DNA of 41,981 nucleotides, taken from NCBI GenBank assembly GCA_035629655.1, contig DASPHN010000022.1, positions 1 to 41,981 of the forward strand. The letters are read 5' to 3'. This DNA is from Candidatus Saccharimonadales bacterium (lineage in GTDB: Bacteria > Chloroflexota > Limnocylindria > Limnocylindrales > CSP1-4). Positions 7,155 through 27,656 of the stretch are shown here, piece by piece. The notes under the pieces are model-generated. The model worked only from the letters and a program-made list of their open reading frames with translations. It did not search any database and had not been told where the DNA came from. The number at the start of each line of letters is the position of its first letter. The first letter of the stretch is position 1. A program made the position numbers and the translations under genes.

Positions 7155-8246
7155 ATGACCATCGACCTCAACGGCATCCGGCTCCGCAACCGCCTCCTGA
7201 CCTCGGCCAGCCTGCTCGGCTACGGCGCCTCGAAGCGCAAGCTCATCCTCTACGGCCTGAGCCCCATCGCCCAGTGGGTCCCCCTGGAGCGGTTCGGCGC
7301 GGTGACCACCAGGACCCTGACCGTCGAGCCCCGGGAGGGCCACTTCTCCCTCCGCGAGGACTGGTCGCTGACCGAGTTCCCGAAGATGCTCCAGCTCTAC
7401 GGCAAGGCGCTGCGCCGGGTCGATGCCGGCTGGATGAACGCCTTCGGCTGGTGCAACATCGGCATCGACGCGTACTTCGACGAGTACTTCCCACGGACCG
7501 CGGACCAGAACCGGATCGTCTCGCTCGGCGGCTTCTCCGCGGACGAGTTCGAGCGCCTGGTCGAGACCACCAATGAGCGCGCGAAGCCGGGTGAGATCGC
7601 CGCGGTCGAGTTCAACGTCTCGTGCCACAACGTGAACTTCCCGTTCGAGACGATCCTCGACGAGGTCCTGAGCCGCGCCGTCCCGAAGAGCCGCCACCCG
7701 GTCATCCTCAAGCTGTCGCCGGACGAGGACTACGTCGGCCAGGCTCAGATGGGCGCCCGGCACGGCGTCGCGGCACTGACTGCGATCAACGCGGTCAAGG
7801 GCCTGCGCCTCGACCCCGAGACCGGCGAGCCGTTCATGAAGAACCGCTACGGCAGCATCTCTGGACGGGCCATCAAGCCGATCGGCCTGCGCGTCGTCGC
7901 CGAGCTACGGGACGCCGGCATCCAGCTGCCGATCATCGCGACCGCGGGGATCCGCGATTACGACGACTGCCGTGAGTTCTTCTGGGCGGGCGCCGACGCG
8001 GTCAGTCTCGGCAGCGCGGTCTGGCTGACCCGCATGCCGCTCTACGCGCTGGGACCGCTCGAGGGCATCCGCCTCCGACGGCTGATCTCGCGCATGGAGC
8101 GGTTCACGCCGCCGGCCGGTGCGCCCCACTGGACACCTGAGGGCGCGCGCGACGGGACCCCGCTCCACGTGAACCTCGATCCGGTGCCCGAGCTCGTGGG
8201 CTTGGCGAATGGCGCCCATCCGAGCGCGTCGGTGCCGACCGCCTAG
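7155..8246 (+). CDS. Dihydroorotate dehydrogenase-like (class 1 PyrD/PreA family) FMN oxidoreductase, divergent
   Basis: 363 aa. Has an NVSCHN active-site-like loop (canonical N-x-S-C-P-N), GSISGRAIKP, and IIATAGI...GADAVSLGSA. Confidence 0.8.
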   Translation: MTIDLNGIRLRNRLLTSASLLGYGASKRKLILYGLSPIAQWVPLERFGAVTTRTLTVEPREGHFSLREDWSLTEFPKMLQLYGKALRRVDAGWMNAFGWCNIGIDAYFDEYFPRTADQNRIVSLGGFSADEFERLVETTNERAKPGEIAAVEFNVSCHNVNFPFETILDEVLSRAVPKSRHPVILKLSPDEDYVGQAQMGARHGVAALTAINAVKGLRLDPETGEPFMKNRYGSISGRAIKPIGLRVVAELRDAGIQLPIIATAGIRDYDDCREFFWAGADAVSLGSAVWLTRMPLYALGPLEGIRLRRLISRMERFTPPAGAPHWTPEGARDGTPLHVNLDPVPELVGLANGAHPSASVPTA

Positions 8247-8260
8247 GCCATGCCGGCCGT

Positions 8261-9349
8261 CTAGGCCGCGCCGGCCACCGCCCAGCGCTCGTACGCCGCG
8301 CGCAGGATCGCCAGCCGCCGCTCCACGTTGCGCTGCTCGTTCGTGCCGTGCTGCGACAGCTCCGAGAACTCGACGAGCGCTGGATCGCGCTCGGATTCGG
8401 GGAGATCCAGCGCCGCGAGCCGCGTCCGTCCGAACCACTCGAGGAATGTTCGGACCCGGTCGACCGCCGCCCGACCCGGCTTGGCCTCCGGCAGGGCCTC
8501 ACCCACGAACAGGTAGGCCAGGAGCGCCTGTGCCGGCGACCCCAGCAACGGGTCGCGCGGAGCGAACACGGCGTCGAGGCGGTCGAGCGTCGCGTCGACG
8601 GTCGCGAGGAGGGCCGGGCCCGCGTCACCCGGGAGCCGCCGGTTCGCTCGCGCGAAGGTGTCGAGGGCCGGCCCGCGCAGGTCCGGGATGGTCGTCTCGC
8701 CCTGTGCCCGCGCCCACTCGATCGCCAACAGCCGCGCCGCCAGGTCGTAGTGTTGGTGGCGCCCGTTCGAGAAGTGCAGCCGGTCCCGGAAGAACGGGCG
8801 GGCGCCGACCTCTCGGATCAGGCGGACGACGTCGCCACCCATGGCGTTGCGCTTCTCGGCCGCGTTGAGCGGCTCGCCATTGTTCAGGCGCGAGAAGAGA
8901 TCTTCGATGTCCTCGTCGGTGGCGTGCCGGATGAGGACGACCGACAGGAACGTGTCCTCGAACACGCTGCGCCAGCGCGGATCGAGCTCCGAGAAGCGCT
9001 GCCCGGCGACCGGCGTGACGGCGTCCTCGGGGAGCTCCGGGGGCACGTTCCGGGACTCGATCCGGAAGTCATCCGCGAGCGCGAACCCGTCGGTGAGGAA
9101 CGACCACAGCGTGGTGAGCCGCTGCTTGCCATCCACGATCGCGTAGACCTTGGTCGGATGCTCCCCACGCAGGTCGTGCAGGTAGATCTTCGGCACGTCG
9201 TAGCCGTTGAGCAAGGAATCGATGAAGAGCTGCTGCTTGTCGAGCGACCAGACCGCGCTCTCGCGCTGGTACGGCGGTCGCTCCTCGATGGCACTCTTCC
9301 AGCGGAGCGACTTCTTGATCGTGAAGTGCTGGGCCAGGATGCAGCGCAT
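8261..9349 (-). CDS. DUF262 domain protein (ParB-like / GmrSD N-terminal-like), no recognisable DUF1524/HNH domain
   Basis: PPYQRESAVWSLDKQQLFIDSLLNGYDVPKIYL and YAIVDGKQRLTTL match the DUF262 (DGQQR) signature. The ATG at 9349 was chosen because the longer TTG start at 9418 would overlap the upstream ORF. Confidence 0.75.
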   Translation of the reverse strand: MRCILAQHFTIKKSLRWKSAIEERPPYQRESAVWSLDKQQLFIDSLLNGYDVPKIYLHDLRGEHPTKVYAIVDGKQRLTTLWSFLTDGFALADDFRIESRNVPPELPEDAVTPVAGQRFSELDPRWRSVFEDTFLSVVLIRHATDEDIEDLFSRLNNGEPLNAAEKRNAMGGDVVRLIREVGARPFFRDRLHFSNGRHQHYDLAARLLAIEWARAQGETTIPDLRGPALDTFARANRRLPGDAGPALLATVDATLDRLDAVFAPRDPLLGSPAQALLAYLFVGEALPEAKPGRAAVDRVRTFLEWFGRTRLAALDLPESERDPALVEFSELSQHGTNEQRNVERRLAILRAAYERWAVAGAA

Positions 9350-9368
9350 CAGCCCGGCCGGCGGGCGG

Positions 9369-9596
9369 TCACTCGTAGACCGTGATGTTCGGCTCGTACT
9401 TGCAGCGGCATCCGGCAAGGCTGGTGCAATCGGCCAGCGGCAGCAGGGGCAGGCCCGACGGCAGGTAGGCCATGTCGGTCACGGCCAGGCACGCGGGACA
9501 GGCGTTCGAGTCGGCGGCGACCAGGGACACGCCGTCGATCGTGCCATCGAGGTACAGCTCGTTGAAGCGCTGGATCTCCGCCGGACGCTCGTCCAT
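9369..9596 (-). CDS. Hypothetical small Cys-rich protein (75 aa; C-P-A-C ... C-x5-C-R-C)
   Basis: High GC3. Its ATG overlaps the stop of the upstream FAD oxidoreductase (TGATG). Five Cys are arranged like a zinc knuckle. Confidence 0.55.
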   Translation of the reverse strand: MDERPAEIQRFNELYLDGTIDGVSLVAADSNACPACLAVTDMAYLPSGLPLLPLADCTSLAGCRCKYEPNITVYE

Positions 9597-10702
9597 CAGC
9601 CGATCAGCACGAAGCGGTCGAGCCGGTACGGGTCCAGCCGCGCGACGGGCTCCCCGAGCAGCTCATCGGCAACAAGGCGACCGAGGATCGGGGCGAGCGT
9701 CGCGCCGCTGTGCGAGACGACGACGTACAGGCCATCGACGGCCGGTGCGGGCCCCACCGCCGGGACACCGTCGACCGGGACGGACCGGATGCCGATGCGA
9801 ACCTCGTCCGCGGCCACGCCCCGGAGCCCGGGCACGAGCCGCGCGGCGCGGGCAAGCACGTCGGCCACTGCCGGGTCGTCGGGTGCCAGGTCGCGCGTCG
9901 AGGGCTCCAGCGCGGCGTCCGCCTCTCGCGACGAGACGAGCAGCCGGTCGTCACCGTCGGGTCGGAGCGCGACGTCGCCGGCGTGGATGACCCGCCCGAT
10001 CCGGGTCGCGGTCGGCTCGGTGCGCACGAGCAGCCCGGGGGATGGGGCCATCGGCAGCCGCACGTGCGCGGTCGCGGCGAGTGCCTCGGATGCCGGACCG
10101 GCGGCGATGACGACGTGATCCGCGACGTGGACCGCGCCAGTGGCGGTCCGGACGCCGGTGGCCCGGCCCTCGTGCACGGCGATCGAGGCGATGTCGTCAC
10201 TCATCAGCGCGGCGCCGGCCGTGGTCGCTGCTTCGACGAGCCGATCGACCAGCGCTCGGGCGTCGAGCCAGCCCTCGTCGGGAAAGTGGGCGGCAACGAA
10301 CGGCCCGTCGTCGTCACCGAGATCGAGCGCGGGCTCCAAGGCGAGGACCCCGGCCCGATCGAGCGACCGGACCGGGTAGCCAAGGGCCAGATGCCGTTCG
10401 ATCTTGTCCTGGAGCTTCGCCGCTCCCGGCCCACGGCCGACCGCCAGGTCGCCGCCGGCGTGGAACCAGTCACCACCCAGGGCCGCGGCGAGGTCAGCGT
10501 AGGCCGCGACGCCATCGCGGTTCAGCTCGAAGTAGGCCGCTGGTGCCTTCTCCTGGGCGTTGACCCAGGCGAAGCTGGACCCGGACGTGCCGCCACCGGG
10601 AGGACCCGAGTCGACCAGCGTGACCGGCGCGCCCCGGGTGGCGAGCTGGTGGGCGAGCGAGGCGCCGAGCAGGCCCGCGCCGACGACGATGATCCCGCTC
10701 AT
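9596..10702 (-). CDS. FAD-dependent oxidoreductase (DAO / glycine-D-amino-acid oxidase family)
   Basis: Start at ATG 10702 with GGAGG upstream. N-terminal IIVVGAGLLGASLA dinucleotide fold. The ORF part upstream of 10702 is Arg/Ser/Pro junk. Confidence 0.85.
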   Translation of the reverse strand: MSGIIVVGAGLLGASLAHQLATRGAPVTLVDSGPPGGGTSGSSFAWVNAQEKAPAAYFELNRDGVAAYADLAAALGGDWFHAGGDLAVGRGPGAAKLQDKIERHLALGYPVRSLDRAGVLALEPALDLGDDDGPFVAAHFPDEGWLDARALVDRLVEAATTAGAALMSDDIASIAVHEGRATGVRTATGAVHVADHVVIAAGPASEALAATAHVRLPMAPSPGLLVRTEPTATRIGRVIHAGDVALRPDGDDRLLVSSREADAALEPSTRDLAPDDPAVADVLARAARLVPGLRGVAADEVRIGIRSVPVDGVPAVGPAPAVDGLYVVVSHSGATLAPILGRLVADELLGEPVARLDPYRLDRFVLIG

Positions 10703-10733
10703 CGGGCTGCCTCCATCCGGCGACGACGACCGC

Positions 10734-10937
10734 TCAGGACGCCGGCTCCTTGGGGCGGTCCAGCGCCAGCTGGCCGGCCCGTGCGAAGTTCTCGGGTGGG
10801 ACCTCCTCGAACCGAAGGGTGACGATGTCCGGGTCGACGCCCCAGGCCTCGACGACGGCATCGGTCAGCCGTTTGGCGAGGTCCCGTTTCTGCTCGACCG
10901 TCCGGCCGCTGATGGCCTGGACGATGATCCTCGGCAT
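10734..10937 (-). CDS. 4-oxalocrotonate tautomerase family protein
   Basis: 67 aa, MPRIIVQ... with catalytic Pro1 and the typical length and pattern (GRTVEQKRDLAKRLTDAV). Confidence 0.85.
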   Translation of the reverse strand: MPRIIVQAISGRTVEQKRDLAKRLTDAVVEAWGVDPDIVTLRFEEVPPENFARAGQLALDRPKEPAS

Positions 10938-10958
10938 CGGTCGTCCCTCCTGTGCGCC

Positions 10959-12122
10959 CTACGGGCGCGCGATCGCTGTCTCGCGGTGTTCCACCTTCTC
11001 GTAGCCGGTCCACAGCGGCTCGTAGAAGTAGCGCACGCCGAACTCGATGCGAAGCGTCCGGGTCCTGGCGTCCGACGGATTGAAGTGCTCGTGTCGCGTC
11101 ATCTTGGGCGGGACGTGGACGGCGTCGCCGGCCTCCCAGTCGTAGTGCTCGAAGTCGATCTCCGAGAACCCGACCCCCTCGAGGACGTACAGCACGGCCT
11201 CCGTGTGCGAATGGCAGTGGCTCGAGGTGTGCGGGACCTCCTCGAAGATGTTCGTCATCGCGACCGAGACGGCCGTGAAGCCGTTGCGCTCCGCGCTCGG
11301 GCTCTCGCCGCCCCCCATGAGGATGTAGATGGCCCCGTGGCGGTGCGGGTTCTCCGAGCTGTGGCGCTTCACCTTGCCGTGGTCGGAGGTGTGGGCGTGG
11401 CCCGGCTCGCTGGCATGGCCGCCGCCACCGCCGTGGTCGCCATGACCATGGCCATCGTGACCGTTGCCGCTCGACGCGGACGGGCCGCCGGCGGCCTCGG
11501 CGGCCTTCGCTTCGGCCTTGGCCTGCTCGCGCCGCTGCTGCTCGTCGGGCGCGTCCTCGAGGTGCAGCGCGATGCGCCGGCCCTGCGTGTCGAACTGGCC
11601 GTCCTCGGCGGACAGGCGGTCCTCGAACCCGGCCTCGTTCGTGCCCTTGTCCTCGAGCTGCTCGAGCCGACCGAGCTTGACGTACAGGTCGAGGTCGATC
11701 GAGGACGCCGAGACGAGCTCGATCTCCTCGTCGCCGGTGTTGAACAGCTGATGGTCGGCCATGTACGGGACGTGGATGGTGGTCCCGGCGTGGAAGTCGT
11801 AACGGCGGCCCTCGACGACGATGCAGCCGCGCCCGCTCAGGACGTGGATCGCCTCCTCGCCGTGGCGATGCCGACCGGTGTGGGTCCCGACCGGGATGCC
11901 CACCTTGGTCACGCTGGTGCCCTGGGTGGGAAAGCCGACCTGCTCGCCGATGAGCATCGCGATCCGATGGTCCTGGCGTGTCTCGATCCAGATCAGGTCA
12001 CGACCGTGGGACACGACGGGGGTCGTGTTGACGCTCATCTCGTTGTGCTCGCTTCGGGCGAGCCAGTCCTCGTAGAAGTCGTTCCGCTCGAGGCGGGTGA
12101 TCGGATGCCACCCCGTCGTCAT
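10959..12122 (-). CDS. Bicupin metalloprotein (dioxygenase-like) with His/Gly-rich interdomain linker
   Basis: Two cupin motif-1 signatures (GTHTGRHRHGEEAIHVLSG and SHCHSHTEAVLYVLEG). ATG at 12122 with AGGAGA upstream. Confidence 0.8.
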   Translation of the reverse strand: MTTGWHPITRLERNDFYEDWLARSEHNEMSVNTTPVVSHGRDLIWIETRQDHRIAMLIGEQVGFPTQGTSVTKVGIPVGTHTGRHRHGEEAIHVLSGRGCIVVEGRRYDFHAGTTIHVPYMADHQLFNTGDEEIELVSASSIDLDLYVKLGRLEQLEDKGTNEAGFEDRLSAEDGQFDTQGRRIALHLEDAPDEQQRREQAKAEAKAAEAAGGPSASSGNGHDGHGHGDHGGGGGHASEPGHAHTSDHGKVKRHSSENPHRHGAIYILMGGGESPSAERNGFTAVSVAMTNIFEEVPHTSSHCHSHTEAVLYVLEGVGFSEIDFEHYDWEAGDAVHVPPKMTRHEHFNPSDARTRTLRIEFGVRYFYEPLWTGYEKVEHRETAIARP

Positions 12123-12207
12123 CGGGCTCTCCTGTGGTGCGTGGCGAGGGACCGGACGAGCCGGCGGGGCGTGACCGGGTGAGCCGGTCGCGCCCCGCCG
12201 GACCCGT

Positions 12208-13650
12208 TCAGTCGATCGGCGCGTTGACCAGGTTCGATCGGTCGCCGAGCGCCTTGAGGAGCCCGGCCGGATCGACGCGCTCGACCACATCCGGTGGGAC
12301 CCGGCAGGCGGGCGGGAACGTCACCGGCGGCGCCGGCTTCGTGCAGTCCAGGATCATCTTGGTCTCCTGGGGACCCTTCTCCTCTCGGTGGTACCCGTAG
12401 GTCACCGGGTTGAGGTGGCCGCCCAGGAAGTTGGGCATCACGATGAGGTCCCGGTCGCCCTGGAACCGCGTCGTCCAGGCCCACAGGACCTGGTCCATGT
12501 CATGCGGATCGATGTCGTCGTCGACGATGAAGATGTGCTTCAGGATGGGATCGACCGCGAACGCGGCCGAGGCGGCGATCTTGGGCTCGCCTTCCACTCG
12601 CTTCTTCATCGCGATGACGAGCGTGCTGCGGATACCCATGAGCGGGAGGCTCACGTCGGTCACCGTCGGCATCGACTCCCGGACGCGCCGGAAGATCGAG
12701 CCCATCCGCGGCAGGGCGCCGAGGACGAGGTGCTCGCGATGGGCGTTGAAGACGTCGACGTAGATCGGCTGGCGACGCATGGTCACCGCGGTCACCTGGA
12801 CCCAGGGCATCGGGCCAAGGCGTGTGTAGTACAGCGGATACTCGCCGAACGGTCCTTCGTTCTGGACCTTCTCCGGATCCGTGTCGACGATGCCCTCGAT
12901 GACGATCTCGGCACGCGCCGGGACCTCGAGGTCGACGGTCTTGCACTTGACCATCTCGACGGACTCGCCGAGCAGCCCACCGAAGACCTCCATCTCGCCG
13001 CCGATGCCCGGCAGCTTCGAGACGGCCGACATGAGCATGGCCGGGTGATGGCCGATGACGAGCGCGACCTCCATCGGCTTCTTCGCTTCGCGGTTGGCCC
13101 GCAGGATGTACGAGGTGTGATGGGCGGGGTTCGTCATGAACCCGACCTGCTTGGGGCCCTGGATCTGGTGCCGGAAGATCCCGGAGTTCAGGCGCCCGCT
13201 GTCGGGGTCGCGCGAGATCGTCGCCGCCGAGGTGATGTACTTCCCGGCGTCGAGCTCGTTGTGGACGAGGAAGGGCAACTTCGTGACGTCGATCTGGTCG
13301 CCCGTCCAGACGACCTCGTGGACCGGCGCCTGGGCGGACTCGACCATGGTGGTCGGGATGCCGCTGCCCTCACGCTTGGCGTACTCCGCGACCATCGACT
13401 TGATGTCGCTGTCGATGCTGCGCGCGACGCGGTCGTAGGTCCCGTGCAGGTTCAGCAGCAGCGGGACCTGCGAGCCCTTCACATTCTTGAAGAGGATCGC
13501 CGGGAAGCCCGGGAACTCATCGTCGTTGACGATCTTGTGGACGAGCGCGGTCGCCTCGAATTCGGGGTCGACCTCTTCCTCGACGACCTTGACCGCATCG
13601 GGCACGGCCGTCAGAAGGTCGTCGAGATAGGTTCGAAGGTCCTTTGCCAT
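12208..13650 (-). CDS. UbiD-family (prFMN-dependent) decarboxylase 1
   Basis: 480 aa. N-terminal DLRTYLDDL and EGPFGEYPLYY, with UbiD-like architecture throughout. GGAGAA upstream. Confidence 0.9.
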   Translation of the reverse strand: MAKDLRTYLDDLLTAVPDAVKVVEEEVDPEFEATALVHKIVNDDEFPGFPAILFKNVKGSQVPLLLNLHGTYDRVARSIDSDIKSMVAEYAKREGSGIPTTMVESAQAPVHEVVWTGDQIDVTKLPFLVHNELDAGKYITSAATISRDPDSGRLNSGIFRHQIQGPKQVGFMTNPAHHTSYILRANREAKKPMEVALVIGHHPAMLMSAVSKLPGIGGEMEVFGGLLGESVEMVKCKTVDLEVPARAEIVIEGIVDTDPEKVQNEGPFGEYPLYYTRLGPMPWVQVTAVTMRRQPIYVDVFNAHREHLVLGALPRMGSIFRRVRESMPTVTDVSLPLMGIRSTLVIAMKKRVEGEPKIAASAAFAVDPILKHIFIVDDDIDPHDMDQVLWAWTTRFQGDRDLIVMPNFLGGHLNPVTYGYHREEKGPQETKMILDCTKPAPPVTFPPACRVPPDVVERVDPAGLLKALGDRSNLVNAPID

Positions 13651-13711
13651 CGCTTCTCCATTCGCGTTGCTATGGACTGGATCACCGGTGATCTCCCGGC
13701 AGGGCCGGGGG

Positions 13712-14569
13712 CTAGAGCACGATCACGCCGAGCGTGACCAATACGGCGCCGAGCACGATCCGCCAGGTCAGTCGTTCCTTCCCTCGGAGGAGGAGCCAGG
13801 TGAAGATCAGCGTGAAGATCGGCGCACTCGCGGTGACCGGATACACGACGCTCACCTCACCTCCGGAGAGACCCAGGGTCAGGGCCAGGAAACCGATCGC
13901 CTGGAGGATCCCTGACAGGACGAAGAGACCGAACGCGGGCTCAGTGCGGGCCTTGAGGAGGCCCGATCGATCGCCGAACGTAAGTGCGTAGATGAGCGCG
14001 GCGATCGCGCCGACAAAGGCCGCGGTGAGCGGCAGATCGGCAGCCTCGAGCCCGAACTTCAGGAAGAGCGGACGGACCCCGTAGGAGAGCATCGCACCGA
14101 ACGCAGCGGCGACGCCGATGTCGAGCCACTGCCGGCGTCCCGATCCCGGCTTCCAGGTCACGAGCACGACGCCGGTCACGATCCCGATGACCGCCAGCCA
14201 GCGGATCGGCGTGACCGGCTCCTGGTAGACCAGGGCGGCCAGGAAGGTCGTGACGACCGGGGCGGAGTTCTTGATCGCCGTCGCCGGCGAGGCGCCGATC
14301 CGATCGATCGCGATGTACAGCCAGCGCCGACCGATGCCAGTCCCGAACAACCCACCCAGCACGAACCCGACGAACGCGGCCAGGGTCACCTGGTCCCAGT
14401 GGAGTCCACCACCGAACGGCAGGATCAGCAGGTACAGCGGGACCGCGATGAACAGGCCGAGGATCATCGCCGTGTCGGGCCGACCGCCCTTGCCGAAGCC
14501 GAGCTTCAGGGTCACGGGATTGAGCCCGAACGAGATGGCCGTGATCAGCGCGAAGACCTTCGGATCCAC
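13712..14569 (-). CDS. EamA/DMT-family transporter
   Basis: 285 aa, about 10 hydrophobic helices arranged as two EamA-like halves. GTG start. Confidence 0.8.
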   Translation of the reverse strand: MDPKVFALITAISFGLNPVTLKLGFGKGGRPDTAMILGLFIAVPLYLLILPFGGGLHWDQVTLAAFVGFVLGGLFGTGIGRRWLYIAIDRIGASPATAIKNSAPVVTTFLAALVYQEPVTPIRWLAVIGIVTGVVLVTWKPGSGRRQWLDIGVAAAFGAMLSYGVRPLFLKFGLEAADLPLTAAFVGAIAALIYALTFGDRSGLLKARTEPAFGLFVLSGILQAIGFLALTLGLSGGEVSVVYPVTASAPIFTLIFTWLLLRGKERLTWRIVLGAVLVTLGVIVL

Positions 14570-14769
14570 GGTCGACAGCGCGACTCAGCGACGCGGTCGG
14601 GTCGGGTCGAGTGGCCCCCCGCGAGACGTCAGGGAGGATCCGCTCGAGCGGAGGGAGGGCAGCGTGCCGGAGGCCGGGCGCGTCCACGAGATGGCTTGCT
14701 CCCTCCTTCACGCGCCAGCCCTCGGAAGGGGCCCGCGAGCCGTCGTCCGAGGCGTCGATGCGACGCGTC

Positions 14770-14785
14770 GTATGCGATTGTATCC
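14770..14785. promoter_or_regulatory. Operator-like site GTATGCGATTGTATCC (regulon motif copy 3)
   Basis: Lies in the 280-bp divergent intergenic region between EamA (-) and the AMDase-like gene (+). It has the CGATTG core. Confidence 0.6.
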
Positions 14786-14848
14786 TAGTGCATGGCGATG
14801 GCCGGCGCAACGCCGGGACGACCCGCCAGGAGGCCACCGGAGGCAACG

Positions 14849-15580: not shown

Positions 15581-15627
15581 GCGATCGCGGCGTTCACGGC
15601 CGGGGCCGGCGGCCGGCATCCGATCGC

Positions 15628-20204: not shown

Positions 20205-20220
20205 GTATGCCGCGGTATTC
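20205..20220. promoter_or_regulatory. Operator-like site GTATGCCGCGGTATTC (regulon motif copy 4)
   Basis: Lies 93 nt upstream of the SBP start, in the divergent region shared with gntR. Confidence 0.5.
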
Positions 20221-20314
20221 TACGGATGCAAGGGGGCCGGGTCAATGCTCCACGCGATTCCTCACCGGGCCTCGCGCACGGACGGACAAATGTGGATTCA
20301 CACGGATCGCGGTG

Positions 20315-20347
20315 CCGTATACTGCCGCGAAACTCCTATGTATACGG
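20315..20347. promoter_or_regulatory. Inverted repeat CCGTATAC-N17-GTATACGG immediately upstream of gntR
   Basis: Perfect 8-bp arms, each containing the palindromic GTATAC half-site. The repeat ends 5 nt before ATG 20352. Confidence 0.55.
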
Positions 20348-20351
20348 TGCC

Positions 20352-21074
20352 ATGCCAGTGGTCGAGCGAGCCAAGACGATGACGGTCCGGCCCCGGTCGA
20401 AGGGCAAGACCGACGGACTTCCCAGCAGCGAGGTCGTCTATCGTCGGCTCAAGCACGAGATCATCAGTGGCGAGATGGCCCCCGACAGCCGCTTGGTCGA
20501 GCTGACCATCGCCGCCGAGTTCGGCGTGAGCCGCACGCCCGTCCGCGAAGCGCTCAAGCGCCTGGCCGCCGAGAACCTCGTCTTCGCGGATCCCGCCCGC
20601 GGGATGATCGTCCACCGCCCCGACGCCGCGGAGATCGAGGATGTCTTCGTCGTCCGTGAGGTGCTCGACGGGCTGGCCGCACAGCTGGCCGCGCATCGCA
20701 TCACGCCCTCCGAGCTCTCGAAGCTGGAGCTGATCGTGAACACGATGGGCGAGGCCATCGAGACCGGCCGCCGGGAGCAGATCGTGGCCGCCAACCAGCG
20801 GTTCCACGATGTCATCTACTCGGCCGCCGGGAATCCCGTGCTGGCCCGAGTCGCGAGCGAGCTTCGCGACTACGTGCGCCGCTACAGCACCCTCCCGTTC
20901 GCGAGCCCCGACCGCGTCGAGCACGTGTTGTCCGAGCATCGGGCGATCCTCACGGCGCTCCAGAAGCACGACCCCAAGGCCGCCGAGCAGGCCTCCGGCG
21001 GGCACCTTTCCGCCGCCCGCGCGTACGTGGTCCGCATGGACCTCGAGGACTACGCGGAGAACCGCCTGGGCTGA
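20352..21074 (+). CDS. GntR-family transcriptional regulator, FadR subfamily (wHTH + FCD domain)
   Basis: ELTIAAEFGVSRTPVREALKRLAAENLV wHTH, followed by a helical FCD-like C-terminal domain. Start is uncertain (ATG 20352 or ATG 20379). Confidence 0.88.
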   Translation: MPVVERAKTMTVRPRSKGKTDGLPSSEVVYRRLKHEIISGEMAPDSRLVELTIAAEFGVSRTPVREALKRLAAENLVFADPARGMIVHRPDAAEIEDVFVVREVLDGLAAQLAAHRITPSELSKLELIVNTMGEAIETGRREQIVAANQRFHDVIYSAAGNPVLARVASELRDYVRRYSTLPFASPDRVEHVLSEHRAILTALQKHDPKAAEQASGGHLSAARAYVVRMDLEDYAENRLG

Positions 21075-21156
21075 GGTCCGGGTCCGGACATCGCCCCCCG
21101 GCATCGCCTCGACGACGAGATCCGGCGACGCCATCGAATGCAGCGTCCGTGCCATG

Positions 21157-21172
21157 GGATACGATTGTCCAC
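21157..21172. promoter_or_regulatory. Operator-like site GGATACGATTGTCCAC (regulon motif copy 5)
   Basis: Lies 52 nt upstream of the asparaginase ATG. It has the CGATTG core. Confidence 0.5.
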
Positions 21173-21223
21173 AACCGAGCACATGGCCCCGTCGGTACCG
21201 GACCGACCACCCAGGAGGCACTG

Positions 21224-22225
21224 ATGGCAGCAGCACGGCCGCGGGTCGCCCTCGTCTTCACCGGTGGCACGATCGACTCGGTCGGCGTCGACCGGCTCGA
21301 CCTCGCCTGGTACATCGAAGCCGGCAAGCGGCTCGATGACGGTGAGCTCGTGGAGCGCGTCCCGGAGCTCGACCGCATCGCCGCGGTCGAGGAAGTGCCG
21401 TTCCGCCGACTGCCCAGCCAGTCCATCACCGACGGCGACCTGGCCGACCTCGTCACCACGATCCACGAGATCTTCGAGTCCGATCGCGCCGACGGGGTCG
21501 TCATCACCCACGGCACGAACACGCTCGAGGAGACGGCCTACTACCTGCACCTGGCCCTCAAGACCGACCGACCGGTCGTCATCGTCGGGTCGATGCGCCC
21601 GTCCTCCGCCGTCAGCGCCGACGGCTACCTGAACCTGCTCAACGGCGTCCGCGTCGCCGCCGATCCGGCATCGGCGGGGATGGGCGTCCTGGTCGTCCTG
21701 AACGACACGATCCTCGGGGCGCGGGACGTCACCAAGACCGCCACGTACCGGGTCGAGACGTTCCAGGGTCGCGACCTCGGGCCTCTCGGCTATGCAGACA
21801 ACGACGGCCGGGTCCTCTTCTACCACCGGCCGGTCCGGCCGCACACGACCGCGACCGAGTTCCAGGTCGGCGAGGCGGCGCTCCCACGCGTCGACGTCGT
21901 CGTGAGCTACCTCGGCGCCGATGCGACGATGATCGATGCCGCGGTGGCGGCGGGCGCGAAAGGCATCGTCAGCGCCGGCACGGGAGCCGGCCGGCCGACG
22001 CCGGCCGAGGACGCCGCGCTCCTGCGCGCCAGCGAGGCCGGCGTGGTCATCTGCCAGGGCACCCGGGTCGGGAGCGGTCGAGCGGTCCGCAGCCCAGGGC
22101 TCGTCAAGCGCGGCTGGGTCGCCTCGGACAACCTCCAGCCCTGGAAGGCGCGGATCCTGCTCCGCTTCGCGCTCGCGACCACGTCCGACGTGGACGAGAT
22201 CCAGCGGATGTTCGACACCTACTGA
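21224..22225 (+). CDS. L-asparaginase (type II / AnsA-AnsB family)
   Basis: VFTGGTIDS nucleophile motif, ITHGTNTLEETAYYL, and GSMRPSSAVSADG. AGGAGG lies 5 nt upstream of ATG 21224. Confidence 0.88.
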   Translation: MAAARPRVALVFTGGTIDSVGVDRLDLAWYIEAGKRLDDGELVERVPELDRIAAVEEVPFRRLPSQSITDGDLADLVTTIHEIFESDRADGVVITHGTNTLEETAYYLHLALKTDRPVVIVGSMRPSSAVSADGYLNLLNGVRVAADPASAGMGVLVVLNDTILGARDVTKTATYRVETFQGRDLGPLGYADNDGRVLFYHRPVRPHTTATEFQVGEAALPRVDVVVSYLGADATMIDAAVAAGAKGIVSAGTGAGRPTPAEDAALLRASEAGVVICQGTRVGSGRAVRSPGLVKRGWVASDNLQPWKARILLRFALATTSDVDEIQRMFDTY

Positions 22226-22264: not shown

Positions 22265-22813
22265 TCAGCCCAGGCCGAGCCCGGTGCGCGTGAACAGCGC
22301 GGCGTACGGGATGCCGGCCTCGGCCATCGCCGCTTCGCCACCCTCCTCGCGATCGATGACGGCCACGATCGCCGTCACGACCCCGCCCGCCTCGCGGATC
22401 CGCTCGGCCGCCCGGATGGCCTGCGCACCGCTGGTGATGACGTCCTCGACGACGACCACCCGGTCGCCGGCAGCGAGCTCCCCCTCGACGAGCTTGGCGG
22501 TGCTGTACTCCTTGCTTGCCTTGCGTGCGATGACGAACGGCAGGTCCGTCTCGAGCGAGACGGCCGCCGCCAGCGCCACCGCCCCGAGCTCCGTGCCGGC
22601 GATCCGCTGCGTGTCGGCGGGGACGTGCACCGCGAGCGCGCGACCCAGACGCCGAAGGATCCCGGGCTGCGTCTCGAACAGGTACTTGTCCAGGTAATAG
22701 GTGCTGCGCGCCCCGGAGCTCAACACGAAGTCACCATGCAGCAGCGACGCGTCCATGACGTCGCGACCCAGCGCGGCCAGGTCCTCGGGGTCGGCCACGA
22801 CGGGCTCGGGCAT
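22265..22813 (-). CDS. pyrE: Orotate phosphoribosyltransferase-like type I PRTase
   Basis: 182 aa. FVLSSGARSTYYLD and the PRPP motif VVVVEDVITSGAQ. GGAGGA lies upstream of ATG 22813. Confidence 0.8.
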   Translation of the reverse strand: MPEPVVADPEDLAALGRDVMDASLLHGDFVLSSGARSTYYLDKYLFETQPGILRRLGRALAVHVPADTQRIAGTELGAVALAAAVSLETDLPFVIARKASKEYSTAKLVEGELAAGDRVVVVEDVITSGAQAIRAAERIREAGGVVTAIVAVIDREEGGEAAMAEAGIPYAALFTRTGLGLG

Positions 22814-22950: not shown

Positions 22951-23658
22951 ATGACCGAGCGTGTTTGGGACCGGTTCCTGAGCGAGGGAGACCGGCAACG
23001 GAACGTCGTCCAGCCAGCGGCCCGCAAGGGCGCCGGGACCAAGCCGGCACTCCTGCTCGTGGACCTCTATCGATGGGTCTTCGGCGATGAGCCGCAGCCC
23101 CTCCTCGAGGCCATCGAGTCCTGGCCGGGGAGCTGCGGCCTCAATGGCTGGACGGCCCTGCCCCACATCCAGGCACTGCTCGCCGAGGCGCGGTCGCTCG
23201 GCCATCCGGTCGTCCACGTCAGCGGGTTCGACGGGATGCCCGGCTGGCGCGACCCGCATCCGCGCGGCCGGGCGAGCGAGGACCCGGCGATGTCCGATCG
23301 ACGGCGACGCCGCTACGACATCGTGGACGAGGTGGCGCCGCTGCCCGGCGAGGTCGTGCTTCGCAAGGTGGCACCGAGCGCGTTCTGGGGGACGCCCCTC
23401 ATCGGCCACCTCGTGTCGCTCGGGGTCGACACCCTGGTCGTGGCCGGCGAATCGACGAGTGGTTGCGTCCGGGCGACGGTGGTCGATGGCAAGAGCCATC
23501 GATTCCGGATGCTCGTGCCCGAACCATGTGTCTTCGACCGTGACGACGCGTCGCACGCGATCAACCTGTACGACCTCGACCAGAAATACGCCGACGTCAT
23601 CGGACTCGAGGAGGCGATCGCGTACCTGCGCTCGGTCGCACCCGCCGGCGGAGGGTGA
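22951..23658 (+). CDS. Isochorismatase-family cysteine hydrolase (maleamate/ureidoacrylate/N-carbamoylsarcosine amidase-like)
   Basis: Candidate D-K-C triad context: ALLLVDLY, VLRKVAPSAF, VVAGESTSGCVRATV. Confidence 0.8.
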   Translation: MTERVWDRFLSEGDRQRNVVQPAARKGAGTKPALLLVDLYRWVFGDEPQPLLEAIESWPGSCGLNGWTALPHIQALLAEARSLGHPVVHVSGFDGMPGWRDPHPRGRASEDPAMSDRRRRRYDIVDEVAPLPGEVVLRKVAPSAFWGTPLIGHLVSLGVDTLVVAGESTSGCVRATVVDGKSHRFRMLVPEPCVFDRDDASHAINLYDLDQKYADVIGLEEAIAYLRSVAPAGGG

Positions 23659-24456: not shown

Positions 24457-24510
24457 CCATCCCACCTCATCGGACCCGCGAGCGCCCCGCGCCACGCCGC
24501 ACGCTTCGCT

Positions 24511-24526
24511 GTATCCAATCGCATAC
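24511..24526. promoter_or_regulatory. Operator-like site GTATCCAATCGCATAC (regulon motif copy 6)
   Basis: Lies 55 nt upstream of the TauE start. Its reverse complement GTATGCGATTGGATAC differs from the site at 14770 at only 3 of 16 positions. Confidence 0.6.
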
Positions 24527-24614
24527 GGTACAGCCCACGGTGGCGTCCTGCGGGACGGTCCAGGCGACCCGCATCGCGCCATGGGACGTTGACCGCAGGC
24601 CTCGGAAGACCATA

Positions 24615-24630
24615 AGATACCGCTGCATAC
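24615..24630. promoter_or_regulatory. Operator-like site AGATACCGCTGCATAC (regulon motif copy 7)
   Basis: Lies 40-55 nt upstream of the UbiD-2 start. It is the second site in the same divergent region. Confidence 0.5.
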
Positions 24631-24671
24631 ATTGGTCCCCGTCGGAGGCGACGGGCCCGTGGACTCGCAGG

Positions 24672-26195
24672 GTGGGAGCGATCTTGGCCATCACCGACCG
24701 ACCGACCGAGACGACGACGGGACGACTGCCCACATGGCGCGATACGCGCGAATGGATCGACCGCGCCCGAGCGATCGGCGAGCTGCGCGACGTCCATGGC
24801 GTGGACTGGGAGCAGGGCATCGGCGAGGTCACCGAGATGCTCGACCACGCCGAGGGCAGCCCGTCCGTCCTGTTCGATGACATCCCGGGCTATCCGTCCG
24901 GGCGGCGCGTCATCGTCAACTGCAGCGGCACGCCGGGCCGCCAGGCCGTGACCCTCAATCTGCCCCAGAGCGAAGCCACGCACGACGGTCTCTTCCGGTT
25001 CTGGCGGAGCGTCCTGGAGGGCTTCCAGCCGGTCGATCCGGTGGACGTGGAGATCGGACCGGTGTTCGAGAACGTCGTCGAAGGCGATGACGTCGATCTC
25101 GAGGCGTTCCCGGTGCCTCTCTGGCACCCGCACGACGGTGGCCGGTTCATCGGGACGGCCAGCATGAACATCCTCAAGGACCCCGATTCCGACTGGGTCA
25201 ACATCGGGACGTATCGCAACCAGATCTTCGCCCGTGACGAGATGGGCATCTATATCAGCCCCGGCAAGCACGGCCGCCTCATCCGCGACAAGTACCTGGC
25301 GCGCGGCGAGCGCATCCCGGTCGTCGTGGTCGTCGGCGCCGATCCGCTGCTGTTCATGGCCTCCTGTGCCGAGGGCATCCCGTACGGCATGAGCGAGCTC
25401 GCCTGGGCGGGCGCGGTGCGTGGCGAGCCGATCGAGGTGGTCCGCGGCCGCCACACCGGCCTCCCCTTCCCGGCCACGGCCGAGATCGCGATCGAAGGCT
25501 GGATCGACCCGACGGCGCCCCTGCACGACGAGGGCCCGTACGGCGAGTGGATGGGCTACTACGCGAGCGGCGAGGGCCAGACCCACGTGATCAAGGTCGC
25601 GGCGATCTATCACCGCAACGATCCGATCCTGCTCGGGTGCCCGCAGGGCAAGCCGCCACATGAGGACAATCGGTTCCTGGCCTACCTGAAGTCCGCCCTC
25701 ATCGAGCAACAGCTGCGAGCCGCCGGCGTGCCCAAGGTCACCGGCGTCTGGTGCCCGCCCGAGGCCGGTAACCGGATGATGACCGTCATCGCGGTGGACC
25801 AGTCCTATCCCGGCCATGCGACCCAGGCGCTGCTGGTCGGCAGCCAGACCGGCACCTCGGCGTACGCCGGCCGGGTGGCCGTCGTCGTGGACCCCGATAT
25901 CGACATCACGAGCCTCGACGACGTGATGTGGGCGATCATGACCCGCTGCGATCCGGTCCGCGACGTCCGGATCATCGACCGCGCGTGGAGCGGCCCACTC
26001 GACCCGGCCATCCACCCAGACCATCGGGGCATGAACTCACGGCTCCTCATCGACGCCACCAAGCCGTGGGAATGGCGGGAGCGGTTCGCCGAGCCCGTCG
26101 TGACCGCCGAGATGAGCCGCGCCGCCCGGCAGCGCTGGGGCTGGATCCTCGATCCGGCCGGGACGCCCCCCGCCACCGACCAGGGACGATCGTAA
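24672..26195 (+). CDS. UbiD-family (prFMN-dependent) decarboxylase 2
   Basis: EGPYGEWMGYY, with a UbiD-like N-terminus (WRDTREWIDRARAIGELRDV) and C-terminus. There is no in-frame ATG near the start. Candidates are GTG 24672 or TTG 24684 (GGGAG 5 nt upstream). Confidence 0.88.
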   Translation: MGAILAITDRPTETTTGRLPTWRDTREWIDRARAIGELRDVHGVDWEQGIGEVTEMLDHAEGSPSVLFDDIPGYPSGRRVIVNCSGTPGRQAVTLNLPQSEATHDGLFRFWRSVLEGFQPVDPVDVEIGPVFENVVEGDDVDLEAFPVPLWHPHDGGRFIGTASMNILKDPDSDWVNIGTYRNQIFARDEMGIYISPGKHGRLIRDKYLARGERIPVVVVVGADPLLFMASCAEGIPYGMSELAWAGAVRGEPIEVVRGRHTGLPFPATAEIAIEGWIDPTAPLHDEGPYGEWMGYYASGEGQTHVIKVAAIYHRNDPILLGCPQGKPPHEDNRFLAYLKSALIEQQLRAAGVPKVTGVWCPPEAGNRMMTVIAVDQSYPGHATQALLVGSQTGTSAYAGRVAVVVDPDIDITSLDDVMWAIMTRCDPVRDVRIIDRAWSGPLDPAIHPDHRGMNSRLLIDATKPWEWRERFAEPVVTAEMSRAARQRWGWILDPAGTPPATDQGRS

Positions 26196-26279
26196 GGGAA
26201 CGACCCTCGCCCACGACGGCCTGATCGGATGCGTCCGCCAGGGTCGCCACCACCCATCGCGCAAGGAGAGACAGCAGGA

Positions 26280-27656
26280 ATGGCTGACACCGTGGATCTC
26301 ATCGTCAAGAACGGCACCGTCGTCACCAGCGACTCGACGTTCGACGCGGACATCGCGATCAAGGACGGCAAGTTCGTCGAGATCGCCGACCCGGGGACCC
26401 TGACCGCGACCGCCGCCGAGGAATACGACGCCGCCGGGAAGTACGTGATCCCCGGCGTCATCGACGGCCACGTCCACTTCCGCGAGCCGGGCCTCGAGTA
26501 CAAGGAAGACTGGCGGACCGGATCGACCGCGGCCATCCATGGCGGCGTGACGACCGTCATCGAGATGCCGAACACCAACCCCAAGACCGACACGGTCGCG
26601 GGCGTCGAGCTCAAGCAGAAGCTCGCCGAGGAGAAGTCGTACGTCGACTTCGGGATCATCGGCCTGCTCGTCCAGGACAGCGTCCCGGCCCTGCGTTCGC
26701 TTGCCGAGGCCGGCGTCGTGGGCTACAAGTGCTTCCTTGGCGAGACGATCGGGAACATCCCGGCGCCGGACGACGGCATGATGCTGGACGGGTTGCGCGA
26801 GATCGCGGCGACCGGCCTGCGCATCGGCTTCCACGCCGAGAACAACGAGATCATGCAGCACCTCATCCGCCAGCTGAAGGCGGAGGGCCGGACGGACCCG
26901 CTCGCCCACGTCGACTCGCGGCCGGCGCTCGCCGAAGTCGAATCGATCCAGCGCATGGGCCTGTACGCGCAGCACACGGGCGCGAAGATGCACATCTTCC
27001 ACCTGTCCAGCCGAGACGGCCTGGACATGATCGATGAGTGGCGCGCCAAGGGCGTCGACGTGACGACCGAGACGGGCGCCCACTACGTGTTCATGAAGGC
27101 CGAGGACATGGAGCGCGTCGGCGTCCGACTGCGCATGAACCCGCCGGTCCGCTACGGCACCGAGGGCCACGGCGACTACCTGCTCGAGGGCATCAAGGAC
27201 GGGCGCGTGAACATGATCGCGACCGACCACTCGCCGCACACGGCCGAGGAGAAGCTCAACGACGACATCTGGAAGGCGATCTCGGGCTTCCCGGGCGTCG
27301 AGACCAGCGTCCGCTTCTTCCTGACCTTCGGCGTCAACGCCGGCCGGATGACGCTCCAGCAGTTCGTCCGGGCGAGCTCCGAGGGTCCCGCCAAGACCTG
27401 GGACATCTACCCGCAGAAGGGCACGATCGCCGTCGGCTCCGATGGCGACCTCACGATCCTCGATCTCGACAAGGAAGGCGTCATCCGCGATGACGAACTC
27501 CACAGCAAGAACCATGTCACGCCCTTCGATGGCACGGCCACCAAGGGCGCCCCTGTCGCGACCATCGTCCGCGGCCAGATCGTCATGCGTGACGGCGAGG
27601 TCGTGGGTGAGGCGCGAGGCCGGATGGTCCGGCCGCGGGTGGCCGTCCCGGCCTGA
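26280..27656 (+). CDS. Cyclic amidohydrolase (dihydroorotase / allantoinase / hydantoinase family)
   Basis: Metal ligand pattern DGHVHF, carboxylated-Lys context GYKCFLGE, FHAEN, HIFHLSS, ATDHSPH. AAGGAGA lies upstream of ATG 26280. Confidence 0.9.
   Translation: MADTVDLIVKNGTVVTSDSTFDADIAIKDGKFVEIADPGTLTATAAEEYDAAGKYVIPGVIDGHVHFREPGLEYKEDWRTGSTAAIHGGVTTVIEMPNTNPKTDTVAGVELKQKLAEEKSYVDFGIIGLLVQDSVPALRSLAEAGVVGYKCFLGETIGNIPAPDDGMMLDGLREIAATGLRIGFHAENNEIMQHLIRQLKAEGRTDPLAHVDSRPALAEVESIQRMGLYAQHTGAKMHIFHLSSRDGLDMIDEWRAKGVDVTTETGAHYVFMKAEDMERVGVRLRMNPPVRYGTEGHGDYLLEGIKDGRVNMIATDHSPHTAEEKLNDDIWKAISGFPGVETSVRFFLTFGVNAGRMTLQQFVRASSEGPAKTWDIYPQKGTIAVGSDGDLTILDLDKEGVIRDDELHSKNHVTPFDGTATKGAPVATIVRGQIVMRDGEVVGEARGRMVRPRVAVPA

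Follow-up and report, generated by a model that had tools for sequence, protein, structure and literature searches.

Dihydroorotate dehydrogenase-, dihydroorotase- and orotate phosphoribosyltransferase-like proteins in an N-heterocycle regulon of Limnocylindria: tentative evidence for an orotate-type node

Background

A 41,981-nucleotide stretch of a genome placed by the names of its homologs in Candidatus Limnocylindrales/Limnocylindria, phylum Chloroflexota (assembly GCA_035629655.1, contig DASPHN010000022.1, positions 1 to 41,981; hereafter, the window) carries an island of catabolic genes in which three products resemble enzymes of pyrimidine biosynthesis: a dihydroorotate dehydrogenase (DHOD)-like flavoprotein (DHODl, 7155-8246), an orotate phosphoribosyltransferase (OPRT)-type protein (22265-22813), and a dihydroorotase- or hydantoinase-like cyclic amidohydrolase (26280-27656). 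The trio is spread over 20 kb and belongs to three separate transcription units. What could these proteins do in such surroundings? A sequence-only reading of the same DNA regarded them as catabolic recruits, with the DHOD and dihydroorotase steps running in reverse to convert orotate, or an orotate-like compound, to carbamoyl-aspartate and then aspartate.

The answer that we tentatively favor, with a rough probability of 45%, is that the three proteins belong, in an accessory capacity, to a catabolic network for N-heterocycles that is controlled by GntR and conserved in Limnocylindria, and that they operate around an orotate/dihydroorotate-type node. The recurrence of the linked look-alikes in related genomes points to an undescribed route with orotate or a close analog as its hub.

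Identification of the trio

Genes in the window (approximately 70% G+C) were called from third-position G+C bias together with Pfam and NCBIfam scans. Overall, approximately 170 related loci (designated with L) were compared; they include 80 loci sampled for DHODl, one per species-level genome, 80 metagenome loci sampled for the amidohydrolase, and an additional dozen of Pfam-annotated contigs. In the Pfam and NCBIfam scans the three look-alikes proved to be real genes located where the sequence-only reading had placed them, and the asparaginase and aspartate dehydrogenase that it had listed beside them were recognized as well. Its remark that none of them belongs to a pyr operon also holds: the trio is tied to its own members, to asparaginase, and to a heterocycle-catabolic regulon instead, and no pyrB, carAB, pyrF, or pyrK domain was detected among the scanned open reading frames (ORFs) of the window. 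When 86 loci (approximately 1.5 Mb) were scanned for second paralogs of DHODl, OPRT, or the amidohydrolase, the sole match was a distant amidohydrolase in L084. No firm placement of the three proteins in a PreA, hydantoinase, or other phosphoribosyltransferase (PRTase) clade, the outcomes named in the sequence-only reading, was observed.

Linkage and gene fusions in relatives

The grouping of the trio exceeds chance, as it recurs in relatives in the form of operons and fusions. Of the 80 species loci, 42 have an asparaginase gene no more than 300 bp from DHODl, and in 49 the distance is at most 10 kb (in L087 and L088 the two genes overlap); the corresponding figures for OPRT are 10 and 17, and the amidohydrolase lies within 10 kb of DHODl in 8. 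All three members stand together with a GntR gene in L006, where the order is DHODl, OPRT, GntR, amidohydrolase, luciferase-like oxidoreductase (LLM), and a thiamine diphosphate (ThDP)-dependent enzyme, and they share one strand in L060, L065, L069, and L075. DHODl of relatives also occurs in tight operons between CoxG and Mo-hydroxylase genes; L077, L083, and L106 contain the succession asparaginase-CoxG-DHODl-MoM-MoL-MoS-UbiD2-amidohydrolase-SBP-ABC (MoM, MoL, and MoS, Mo-hydroxylase subunits; UbiD2, a prenylated FMN (prFMN)-dependent decarboxylase; SBP, substrate-binding protein).

The closest form of coupling is an in-frame fusion of DHODl with OPRT, encoded at L078:10001-11566 (521 aa, with both Pfam domains) and on the minus strand at L118:15253-17001 (582 aa). 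The fusions consist of an N-terminal DHODl, a Pro/Gly/Ala-rich linker, and a C-terminal OPRT, in which the flexible loop reads RP..[KR]DHGP, in place of RK..K.YST. A mere co-location of three unrelated paralogs might be suspected from the window, with its three transcription units scattered over 20 kb, yet it is scarcely credible in view of the operons, fusions, and shared operator that recur over more than 100 independent loci.

Canonical PyrK and PyrD in the same network

The strongest argument for a catabolic DHOD-type step with an orotate-like substrate is provided by L175, a metagenome-assembled genome (MAG) of Limnocylindrales. Its region 7440-19050 contains, in this order, IclR, PyrK, PyrD, NMT1, ABC, a split ThDP enzyme, Mo-hydroxylase, and an amidohydrolase 56% identical to that of the window. 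The slot held by CoxG-DHODl in L077, L083, and L106 is thus filled by a PyrD scoring above the equivalog cut-off; as a canonical enzyme can take the place of DHODl in such an operon, the step may be catabolic and its substrate may resemble orotate.

A canonical class-1B PyrD (355 > 269 bits), accompanied by a PyrK-like subunit, also shares loci with DHODl itself (L089 and L090), and DHODl is therefore not the sole DHOD-family enzyme of the lineage. PyrK in relatives accompanies canonical PyrD only; no PyrK gene (DHODB_Fe-S_bind) adjoins DHODl in the window or in the 80 species loci, and in none of the loci of relatives did a canonical PyrK/PyrD pair belong to a pyr operon. Instead, the pair forms part of a cassette composed of OPRT, a protein of 162-189 aa, an M20 hydrolase, PyrK, and PyrD, which is present in L089, L090, L093, and L094 (L089:8001-12349, L093:6553-10960, and L094:6521-10957; the hydrolase is of the M20/M28 type). 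The 162-189-aa protein gives only a marginal PRTase-like match in Pfam and NCBIfam. In L089 and L090 the cassette is followed by a gene of the isocitrate lyase (ICL) family, and in L089 by a PrpF gene too.

The shared operator and its candidate regulator

With one mismatch allowed, the pattern GTATnC-N4-GnATAC has 14 strand-matches in the window, i.e., 7 palindromic sites, against 0.13 expected, and 7/7 of the sites are situated in promoter regions. One operator-like palindrome (GTATACAATCGGATAC, 6804-6819) separates the ABM-like gene from the unit formed by a 75-aa gene and DHODl, and another (GTATCCAATCGCATAC, 24511-24526) is located ahead of UbiD2 and the amidohydrolase. Further sites precede LLM and aspartate dehydrogenase (5243-5258), the ABC and GntR-asparaginase genes (20205-20220), and the Mo-hydroxylase and ThDP enzyme genes (32320-32335), and the others precede the EamA and arylmalonate decarboxylase (AMDase)-like genes and a second ABC system. 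The operator is kept before the 75-aa/DHODl unit in 11 relatives; in relatives it is also found ahead of asparaginase-CoxG-DHODl and ahead of Mo-hydroxylase genes. The candidate operator binder is the GntR/FCD regulator of the island (20226-21074, plus strand; Pfam GntR and FCD), the true start of which is probably downstream of 20226.

The amidohydrolase and its partners

The amidohydrolase (plus strand, Pfam Amidohydro_1) combines dihydroorotase-type motifs with a hydantoinase/allantoinase-like scaffold. Its ORF spans 26229-27656; the start at 26280 is preferred because a Shine-Dalgarno sequence (AAGGAGAG) lies upstream of it and the alignments of homologs begin there. The protein scores above the broad domain model TIGR00857 pyrC_multi (329 > 279) and TIGR03178 allantoinase (364 > 358) and below the dihydroorotase equivalog cut-offs (PRK09060, 358 vs 482 bits; PRK02382, 342 vs 452 bits). 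Among PDB sequences, L-hydantoinase 1GKR ranks best (321 bits), followed by allantoinase (276) and bacterial dihydroorotases (approximately 216). Metal-ligand motifs are present (GHVHF, GYKCF, FHAEN, FHLSS, and TDHSPH), and HVHFREPG, MPNTxP (EMPNTNP in the window), and TDHSPH are invariant among the orthologs. We take the latter three to represent the PROSITE-type signature of dihydroorotases, whose Arg and Asn residues hold the carboxylate of the substrate.

Directly upstream of the amidohydrolase, UbiD2 (24540-26195, plus strand; Pfam UbiD N, core, and C; N-terminal start uncertain) is a PhdA-like member of the UbiD family of prFMN decarboxylases, with phenazine-1-carboxylate decarboxylase PhdA as the best PDB match (7PDA, 352 bits). 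Another decarboxylase of the island, UbiD1 (12208-13650), best matches 6H6V/6H6X (278 bits), presumably the furandicarboxylate decarboxylase HmfF. In 29 loci the upstream sequence suffices for the spacing to be scored, and in 20 of them an ortholog of the amidohydrolase (at least 60% identical) follows UbiD2 at a distance of no more than 300 bp, the typical operon being MoM-MoL-MoS-UbiD2-amidohydrolase-NMT1 binding protein-ABC. No such ortholog adjoins a pyr gene among the loci compared. Judged by this context, the amidohydrolase is a component of a catabolic operon and a dedicated partner of UbiD decarboxylase and Mo-hydroxylase, not a PyrC. In the window, genes for a CoxG-like protein and for the large, FAD, and 2Fe-2S subunits of a Mo-hydroxylase (28070-32302, minus strand; Pfam) lie behind the 32320-32335 operator. 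The large subunit of a second Mo-hydroxylase (40427-41981, minus strand; Pfam) is cut by the window end; it is 66-81% identical to the Mo subunit of L077, L083, L106, and L113, and is an ortholog of one found in the DHODl/UbiD2/amidohydrolase operons of relatives.

Neighbors of the trio provide candidates for the steps around aspartate. The type-II-like L-asparaginase (21149-22225, plus strand) contains the Pfam Asparaginase N and C domains and reaches 311 vs 314 bits with TIGR00520. An isochorismatase-family cysteine hydrolase (22951-23658, plus strand; Pfam Isochorismatase) is a candidate carbamoyl or amide hydrolase: its best PDB match is N-carbamoylsarcosine amidohydrolase (95 bits), followed by 3OT4/3UAO (93 bits), deposited as a putative isochorismatase and, as we assume, the maleamate amidase NicF. 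The M20 enzymes of relatives are further candidates for the carbamoylase step. A member of the L-aspartate dehydrogenase family is encoded at 5325-6128 (plus strand; Pfam Asp_DH_C and NAD_binding_3; NF009828, 201 > 177 bits), and its homologs occur in related operons (L083 and L139). A route in which thymine is converted through 5-carboxyuracil to uracil, and the uracil is then catabolized reductively, was set aside as less probable, since the amidohydrolase keeps the carboxylate-binding residues and the neighboring genes point to aspartate, not to beta-alanine.

The DHOD-like flavoprotein

DHODl (363 aa, plus strand) is a divergent flavoprotein of the class-1 DHOD fold. It matches Pfam DHO_dh (PF01180, E 2e-27), and the closest PDB sequence is Lactococcus lactis DHODB (1EP1). 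With the AF2 model (pLDDT 75, pTM 0.80) as a Foldseek query, the top 50 structures are all class 1B/1A DHODs (TM 0.6-0.74). The NVSCHN loop aligns with NISCPN of 1EP1, so that the catalytic Cys is retained; the same applies to the four pyrimidine-binding Asn residues (N[AV]SCHN, W.NAFGW.N.G, and AINA).

Other properties of DHODl, together with some of OPRT and of the proposed chemistry described in the following sections, count against an orotate-type node. The best NCBIfam models are those of class-1B PyrD, and the protein remains under all NCBIfam PyrD cut-offs (NF005574, 149 vs 269 bits; TIGR01037, 138 vs 270 bits). In 88/88 DHODl members, Arg stands in place of the canonical Lys (GAVTTRT), whereas the canonical PyrD of the lineage has TKT; this position presumably equals Lys43 of L. 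lactis DHODA, which contacts FMN and the orotate carboxylate. Furthermore, the loop Pro is changed to His (SCPN to SCHN), and an insertion of approximately 25 aa follows PREG. Like a C-terminal tail of approximately 60 aa, these departures are invariant in 85-88 of the 88 family members. Because it scores below every PyrD model and shows the Lys-to-Arg and Pro-to-His replacements as well as the insertion, DHODl may have a substrate other than orotate.

Such a substrate could be a non-orotate azine or pyridone carboxylate, with DHODl acting as an ene-reductase, the amidohydrolase as a lactam or imide hydrolase, and OPRT either using a pyridone analog or being peripheral. For example, pyridine (di)carboxylates could give rise to 6-hydroxynicotinate, citrazinate, or 6-hydroxypicolinate, or the compound could be a fragment of phenazine or quinoxaline; the route would resemble nicotinate fermentation by Eubacterium barkeri or the isonicotinate/citrazinate route. 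Apart from the clear separation of DHODl from canonical PyrD, this possibility draws on the composition of the island, where two Mo-hydroxylases and the PhdA-like and HmfF-like UbiDs are accompanied by PrpF-like, PEP-mutase/ICL-family, short-chain dehydrogenase/reductase (SDR), and IlvD-type dehydratase genes. We take these families (PrpF-like, ICL, SDR, IlvD-type, and others) to echo the E. barkeri pathway. The Asp/Glu-racemase-fold (maleate-isomerase/AMDase-like) gene of the island agrees with it, as does the nearly equal score of the isochorismatase-family protein on 3OT4/3UAO. However, neither a B12 mutase nor an enamidase-type relative was seen, OPRT and dihydroorotase signature residues are strictly retained, all four pyrimidine-binding Asn residues persist in DHODl, and an equivalog-passing PyrD can hold the same operon slot in L175. 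A non-orotate substrate is regarded as doubtful.

The DHODl family is compact. In a clustering at 50% identity of 1.8 billion representatives it corresponds to about two full-length clusters; its next full-length relatives, from low-G+C organisms, are 41-44% identical, and canonical DHODs reach at most 38%. Five of the relatives from low-G+C organisms (P0384, P0395, P0398, P0401, and P0404; approximately 280-320 aa, 41-44% identical to DHODl) all share its insertion and W.N..GW.N.G and keep SCPN. The Arg-for-Lys replacement is present in P0384, P0398, P0401, and P0404, and P0395 retains Lys. As these proteins carry its features, the DHODl subfamily extends beyond Limnocylindria.

OPRT and the case for biosynthesis

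The OPRT of the window (182 aa, minus strand, ATG at 22813) scores above the pyrE model TIGR00336 (129 > 106.8 bits). Its motifs (GDFVLSSGARSTYYLD, RKASKEYST, VVVVEDVITSG, and VIDREEGG) include the phosphoribosyl pyrophosphate (PRPP) loop, the N-terminal orotate/PRPP motif, and the DR motif. OPRT is present in one copy per locus in 27 loci (including two picked for length alone), always within the network: beside DHODl, at the end of the operon of EamA, UbiD1, bicupin, 4-oxalocrotonate tautomerase (4-OT), and FAD oxidase, in the PyrK/PyrD cassette, or, as in the window, between asparaginase and the isochorismatase-family gene. The promoter of the window OPRT shows no operator with up to three mismatches, and the only clear case of an operator-associated OPRT is L094, where the site is 115 bp upstream of the OPRT-M20-PyrK-PyrD cassette. 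A horizontal acquisition of OPRT, suggested by a low G+C content at third positions (GC3), was rejected as an artifact of an over-long ORF; with correct coordinates GC3 is 0.92, like that of the neighbors.

Co-inherited with DHODl, OPRT could be the sole pyrE of the lineage. The OPRT tree is approximately congruent with that of DHODl, which in turn is clade-congruent and indicates vertical inheritance, DHODl being single-copy across the 80 species. Identity among DHODl proteins amounts to 73-91% across the class, as compared with 65-74% for ilvD, and in a 50-member clade DHODl belongs to a housekeeping-looking array (ilvD-LLM-(GNAT)-DHODl-asparaginase-M20) that lacks the operator. Judged by sequence comparison, such conservation and copy number are typical of a core biosynthetic gene, and DHODl, being single-copy, vertically inherited, and very conserved, may have a biosynthetic role.

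The gene order upstream of DHODl fits the same picture. The start of the window encodes an ilvD-type dehydratase (2-1291, plus strand), which is translationally coupled to a second LLM (1288-2190, plus strand), the GTG start of the latter overlapping the ilvD stop (GTGA). The order ilvD-LLM...DHODl, with ilvD at most 5 kb from DHODl, is kept in 43/80 species and is still discernible in the window; L087 and L088 show IlvD-LLM-(GNAT)-DHODl-asparaginase-M20. Since DHODl of relatives is preceded by this ilvD-LLM pair too, an insertion of the catabolic genes at 2195-7096 into an old syntenic array seems to have taken place; from these comparisons the pair would be the ancestral upstream neighborhood of DHODl, with the island apparently inserted between.

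Taken to its conclusion, this line of thought makes DHODl and OPRT the ordinary pyrD and pyrE of the lineage, the island an accretion at an ilvD-LLM-pyrD locus, and the amidohydrolase alone catabolic. The PyrD-PyrE fusion would be natural for consecutive biosynthetic steps, and L. lactis shows that an organism can have two DHODs. Nevertheless, 11 relatives share with the window an operator of the catabolic regulon ahead of DHODl, DHODl participates in tight operons between CoxG and Mo-hydroxylase, OPRT was never found in a neutral context in its 27 loci, and canonical PyrK/PyrD coexists with DHODl in relatives. We consider purely biosynthetic functions of DHODl and OPRT unlikely.

A branch node around orotate and dihydroorotate

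The orotate-type node that we favor can be set out as a series of putative steps. The NMT1-type ABC system would import an N-heteroaromatic carboxylate, and oxidation by Mo-hydroxylase and decarboxylation by UbiD2 would yield an orotate-like 2-oxo-heterocycle-carboxylate. DHODl (or PyrK/PyrD in some relatives) might then interconvert the orotate-like compound and its 5,6-dihydro form, the ring of which would be opened by the dihydroorotase-like amidohydrolase. Aspartate could be freed by the asparaginase or the isochorismatase-family hydrolase, or by M20 in relatives, all of them candidates, and would be deaminated by aspartate dehydrogenase. OPRT would divert the same base to a ribonucleotide, orotidine monophosphate (OMP), and the node would serve as both a food and a nucleotide source.

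The place of OPRT largely determines this shape. Its fusion to DHODl suits the biosynthetic order better than the reversed route, and its coupling in general is no less compatible with the forward order, in which dihydroorotate gives orotate and orotate gives OMP. Since this coupling misfits the reversed route, a branch node is proposed and not a one-way catabolic chain. Moreover, it is hard to see where a Mo-hydroxylase or a PhdA-like UbiD2 could attack orotate; as these enzymes have no obvious action on it, orotate is more probably formed within the pathway than imported. The proposals of the sequence-only reading are modified accordingly. Its reversed DHOD/dihydroorotase route leaves OPRT without a place. 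Orotate-type chemistry is supported by the motifs and by PyrK/PyrD of L175, with orotate itself probably shifted from the import to the interior of the pathway. Catabolic recruitment agrees with the association of the amidohydrolase with UbiD2 and Mo-hydroxylase, while the pattern of DHODl and OPRT also fits biosynthesis.

A more specific version postulates a hitherto undescribed aerobic pathway in which Mo-hydroxylase and prFMN decarboxylase lead from an N-heteroaromatic (di)carboxylate that is abundant in the environment to orotate/dihydroorotate. A new DHOD class, with Arg for Lys, an SCHN loop, no PyrK, and at times a fused OPRT, would perform the redox step, a dihydroorotase on a hydantoinase scaffold would open the ring, and the two would split the compound between OMP for nucleotide supply and aspartate for carbon and nitrogen supply. 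If true, although we consider it improbable in this full form, a catabolic pathway would end inside pyrimidine biosynthesis, comparable to the conversion of lumazine to xanthine.

Neighborhood of the trio

DHODl is preceded by a co-transcribed gene for a 75-aa helical protein (6869-7096, plus strand; weak DUF6247 match only), which occupies the same position in L001-L005, L007, L009, L011, L014, L020, L026, L031, L034, and L070. Divergent from DHODl, a conserved protein of approximately 110 aa (6385-6715, minus strand), ABM-like by our reading, was recognized by comparison with relatives; it is 60% identical to the product of a 112-aa gene in L005, is kept in 8 relatives, and has no Pfam match. 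None of the small partners (75, 110, and 82 aa) has an informative match in Pfam or NCBIfam. The LLM next to aspartate dehydrogenase (4308-5240, minus strand) is an F420/FMN-type oxidoreductase (Pfam Bac_luciferase; TIGR03619, 134 bits, below cut-off), and an LLM is found within 2.5 kb of DHODl in 52/80 species.

On the other side of DHODl, a DUF262/GmrSD_N-domain protein (8261-9418, minus strand) and a 76-aa Cys-containing protein (9372-9599, minus strand) are encoded at the end of the EamA-UbiD1-bicupin-4-OT-FAD oxidase operon. Both genes recur with OPRT; L005 contains FAD oxidase, an 82-aa protein, GmrSD_N, a 112-aa protein, and OPRT. Besides the genes described, the island comprises several transporters, one of them with an NMT1/THI5-type binding protein, and a ThDP enzyme.

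In one clade (L002, L003, L005, and L091) the network is flanked by a stretch of approximately 6 kb, beside DHODl or OPRT and absent from the window, that encodes hydantoinase A/B (oxoprolinase/acetone-carboxylase family) and a type-III CoA-transferase. A short citrate-synthase-like gene is found in L005 and L091, and an IclR regulator in L002, L005, and L091. Three typical Limnocylindria-type DHODl loci (L016, L078, and L082) come from MAGs labelled Eisenbacteria, Actinomycetota, and Steroidobacteraceae; errors of binning or labelling are a more probable cause than horizontal transfer.

Significance

In a widespread class of uncultured soil and freshwater bacteria, a conserved and regulated set of DHOD-, dihydroorotase-, and OPRT-type proteins is wired to Mo-hydroxylases and prFMN decarboxylases, and Limnocylindria possess a distinct DHOD subfamily as well as natural DHOD-OPRT fusions. 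If the orotate-type node were confirmed, it would represent a new fate for soil N-heterocycles, supply an orphan flavoprotein of very high conservation with a function, and provide a case of biosynthetic enzymes recruited to, or shared with, catabolism. Automated annotation, which labels the genes for DHODl, the amidohydrolase, and OPRT plainly as pyrD, pyrC, and pyrE, should be treated with caution in such loci.

Comparison with known systems

The biochemistry of orotate breakdown by reversed enzymes of pyrimidine synthesis dates back to the 1950s. In Clostridium oroticum, orotate fermentation involves an NADH-dependent orotate reductase (a class-1B DHOD), dihydroorotase, and ureidosuccinase. 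Our literature search found no orotate catabolic gene cluster, no ureidosuccinase genes, and, beyond the anaerobic setting, no account of the genetics of such a system; it also found no experiment or publication on the DHODl/OPRT/amidohydrolase system, a further point to be set against an orotate-type node. The network described here resembles that of C. oroticum in its DHOD-type enzyme, dihydroorotase-type hydrolase, and candidate carbamoyl hydrolase, which would lead toward aspartate; candidate genes for all three steps of the fermentation are linked, and relatives such as L175 and L089 carry the literal PyrK/PyrD class-1B pair. In contrast to C. oroticum, the host belongs to aerobic-type soil Chloroflexota, and the genes are surrounded by those for Mo-hydroxylases, prFMN decarboxylases, and an ABC importer. 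Moreover, the DHOD of the window is divergent and PyrK-less, OPRT is tightly coupled or fused, and ureidosuccinase is represented by candidates only.

The individual proteins show a similar mixture of likeness and difference. DHODl shares with class 1 DHODs (L. lactis PyrDb, 1EP1/5UE9, and PyrDa, 1DOR) the TIM barrel, Cys loop, four Asn residues, and the KLSP FMN strand; it differs in identity (23-33%), in TRT and SCHN, in the insertion and tail, and in clustering tightly by itself when proteins are grouped at 50% identity. The amidohydrolase has the Amidohydro_1 fold, metal ligands, and HVHFREPG/MPNTNP/TDHSPH motifs in common with type I dihydroorotase, 1GKR, and 3HM7; unlike PyrC, it is nearer to L-hydantoinase and allantoinase, is paired with UbiD, and never occurs with pyrB. 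The OPRT agrees with PyrE (OPRT of UMP synthase, 3QW4/2WNS, and the Mycobacterium tuberculosis enzyme, 5HKF) in TIGR00336, the PRPP loop, and the DR motif; its flexible loop, RK..K.YST, has Ser in place of Gly, and it was found only inside the catabolic network.

A third kind of substrate is brought to mind by the transporter, whose NMT1/THI5 family presumably includes pyrimidine and flavin binders: a fused ring of the lumazine, pterin, or alloxazine type might be remodelled to a simple nucleobase that is salvaged by the PRTase, much as Cupriavidus sp. LA-1 turns lumazine into xanthine. Cluster I of Cupriavidus sp. LA-1 encodes the same three enzyme types, i.e., a Mo-dependent lumazine dehydrogenase, an isomerase of the amidohydrolase fold, and a prFMN-dependent xanthine-8-carboxylate decarboxylase (PMC12391406). 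The operon logic of the present network resembles that of the cluster, in which Mo-hydroxylase, UbiD, and an amidohydrolase-fold protein remodel a ring and the end product is a salvageable nucleobase (PMC12391406). However, the Cupriavidus isomerase is an Amidohydro_2 heterotetramer (PMC12391406), whereas the window protein is an Amidohydro_1 member with dihydroorotase motifs, and its assignment to the family of the 6,7-dihydroxylumazine isomerase was rejected on this ground. No DHOD, OPRT, or asparaginase belongs to the Cupriavidus cluster (PMC12391406); conversely, UbiX (the prFMN synthase), a pterin deaminase, and an LA1_0143-like GTPase were not seen among the ORFs scanned in the 42-kb window. 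A pteridine-like route would also leave the DHOD-type enzyme and asparaginase without a role, and we regard it as very improbable. On this analysis, orotate fermentation in C. oroticum appears to be the closest known system by function, and the lumazine cluster of Cupriavidus the closest by operon logic.

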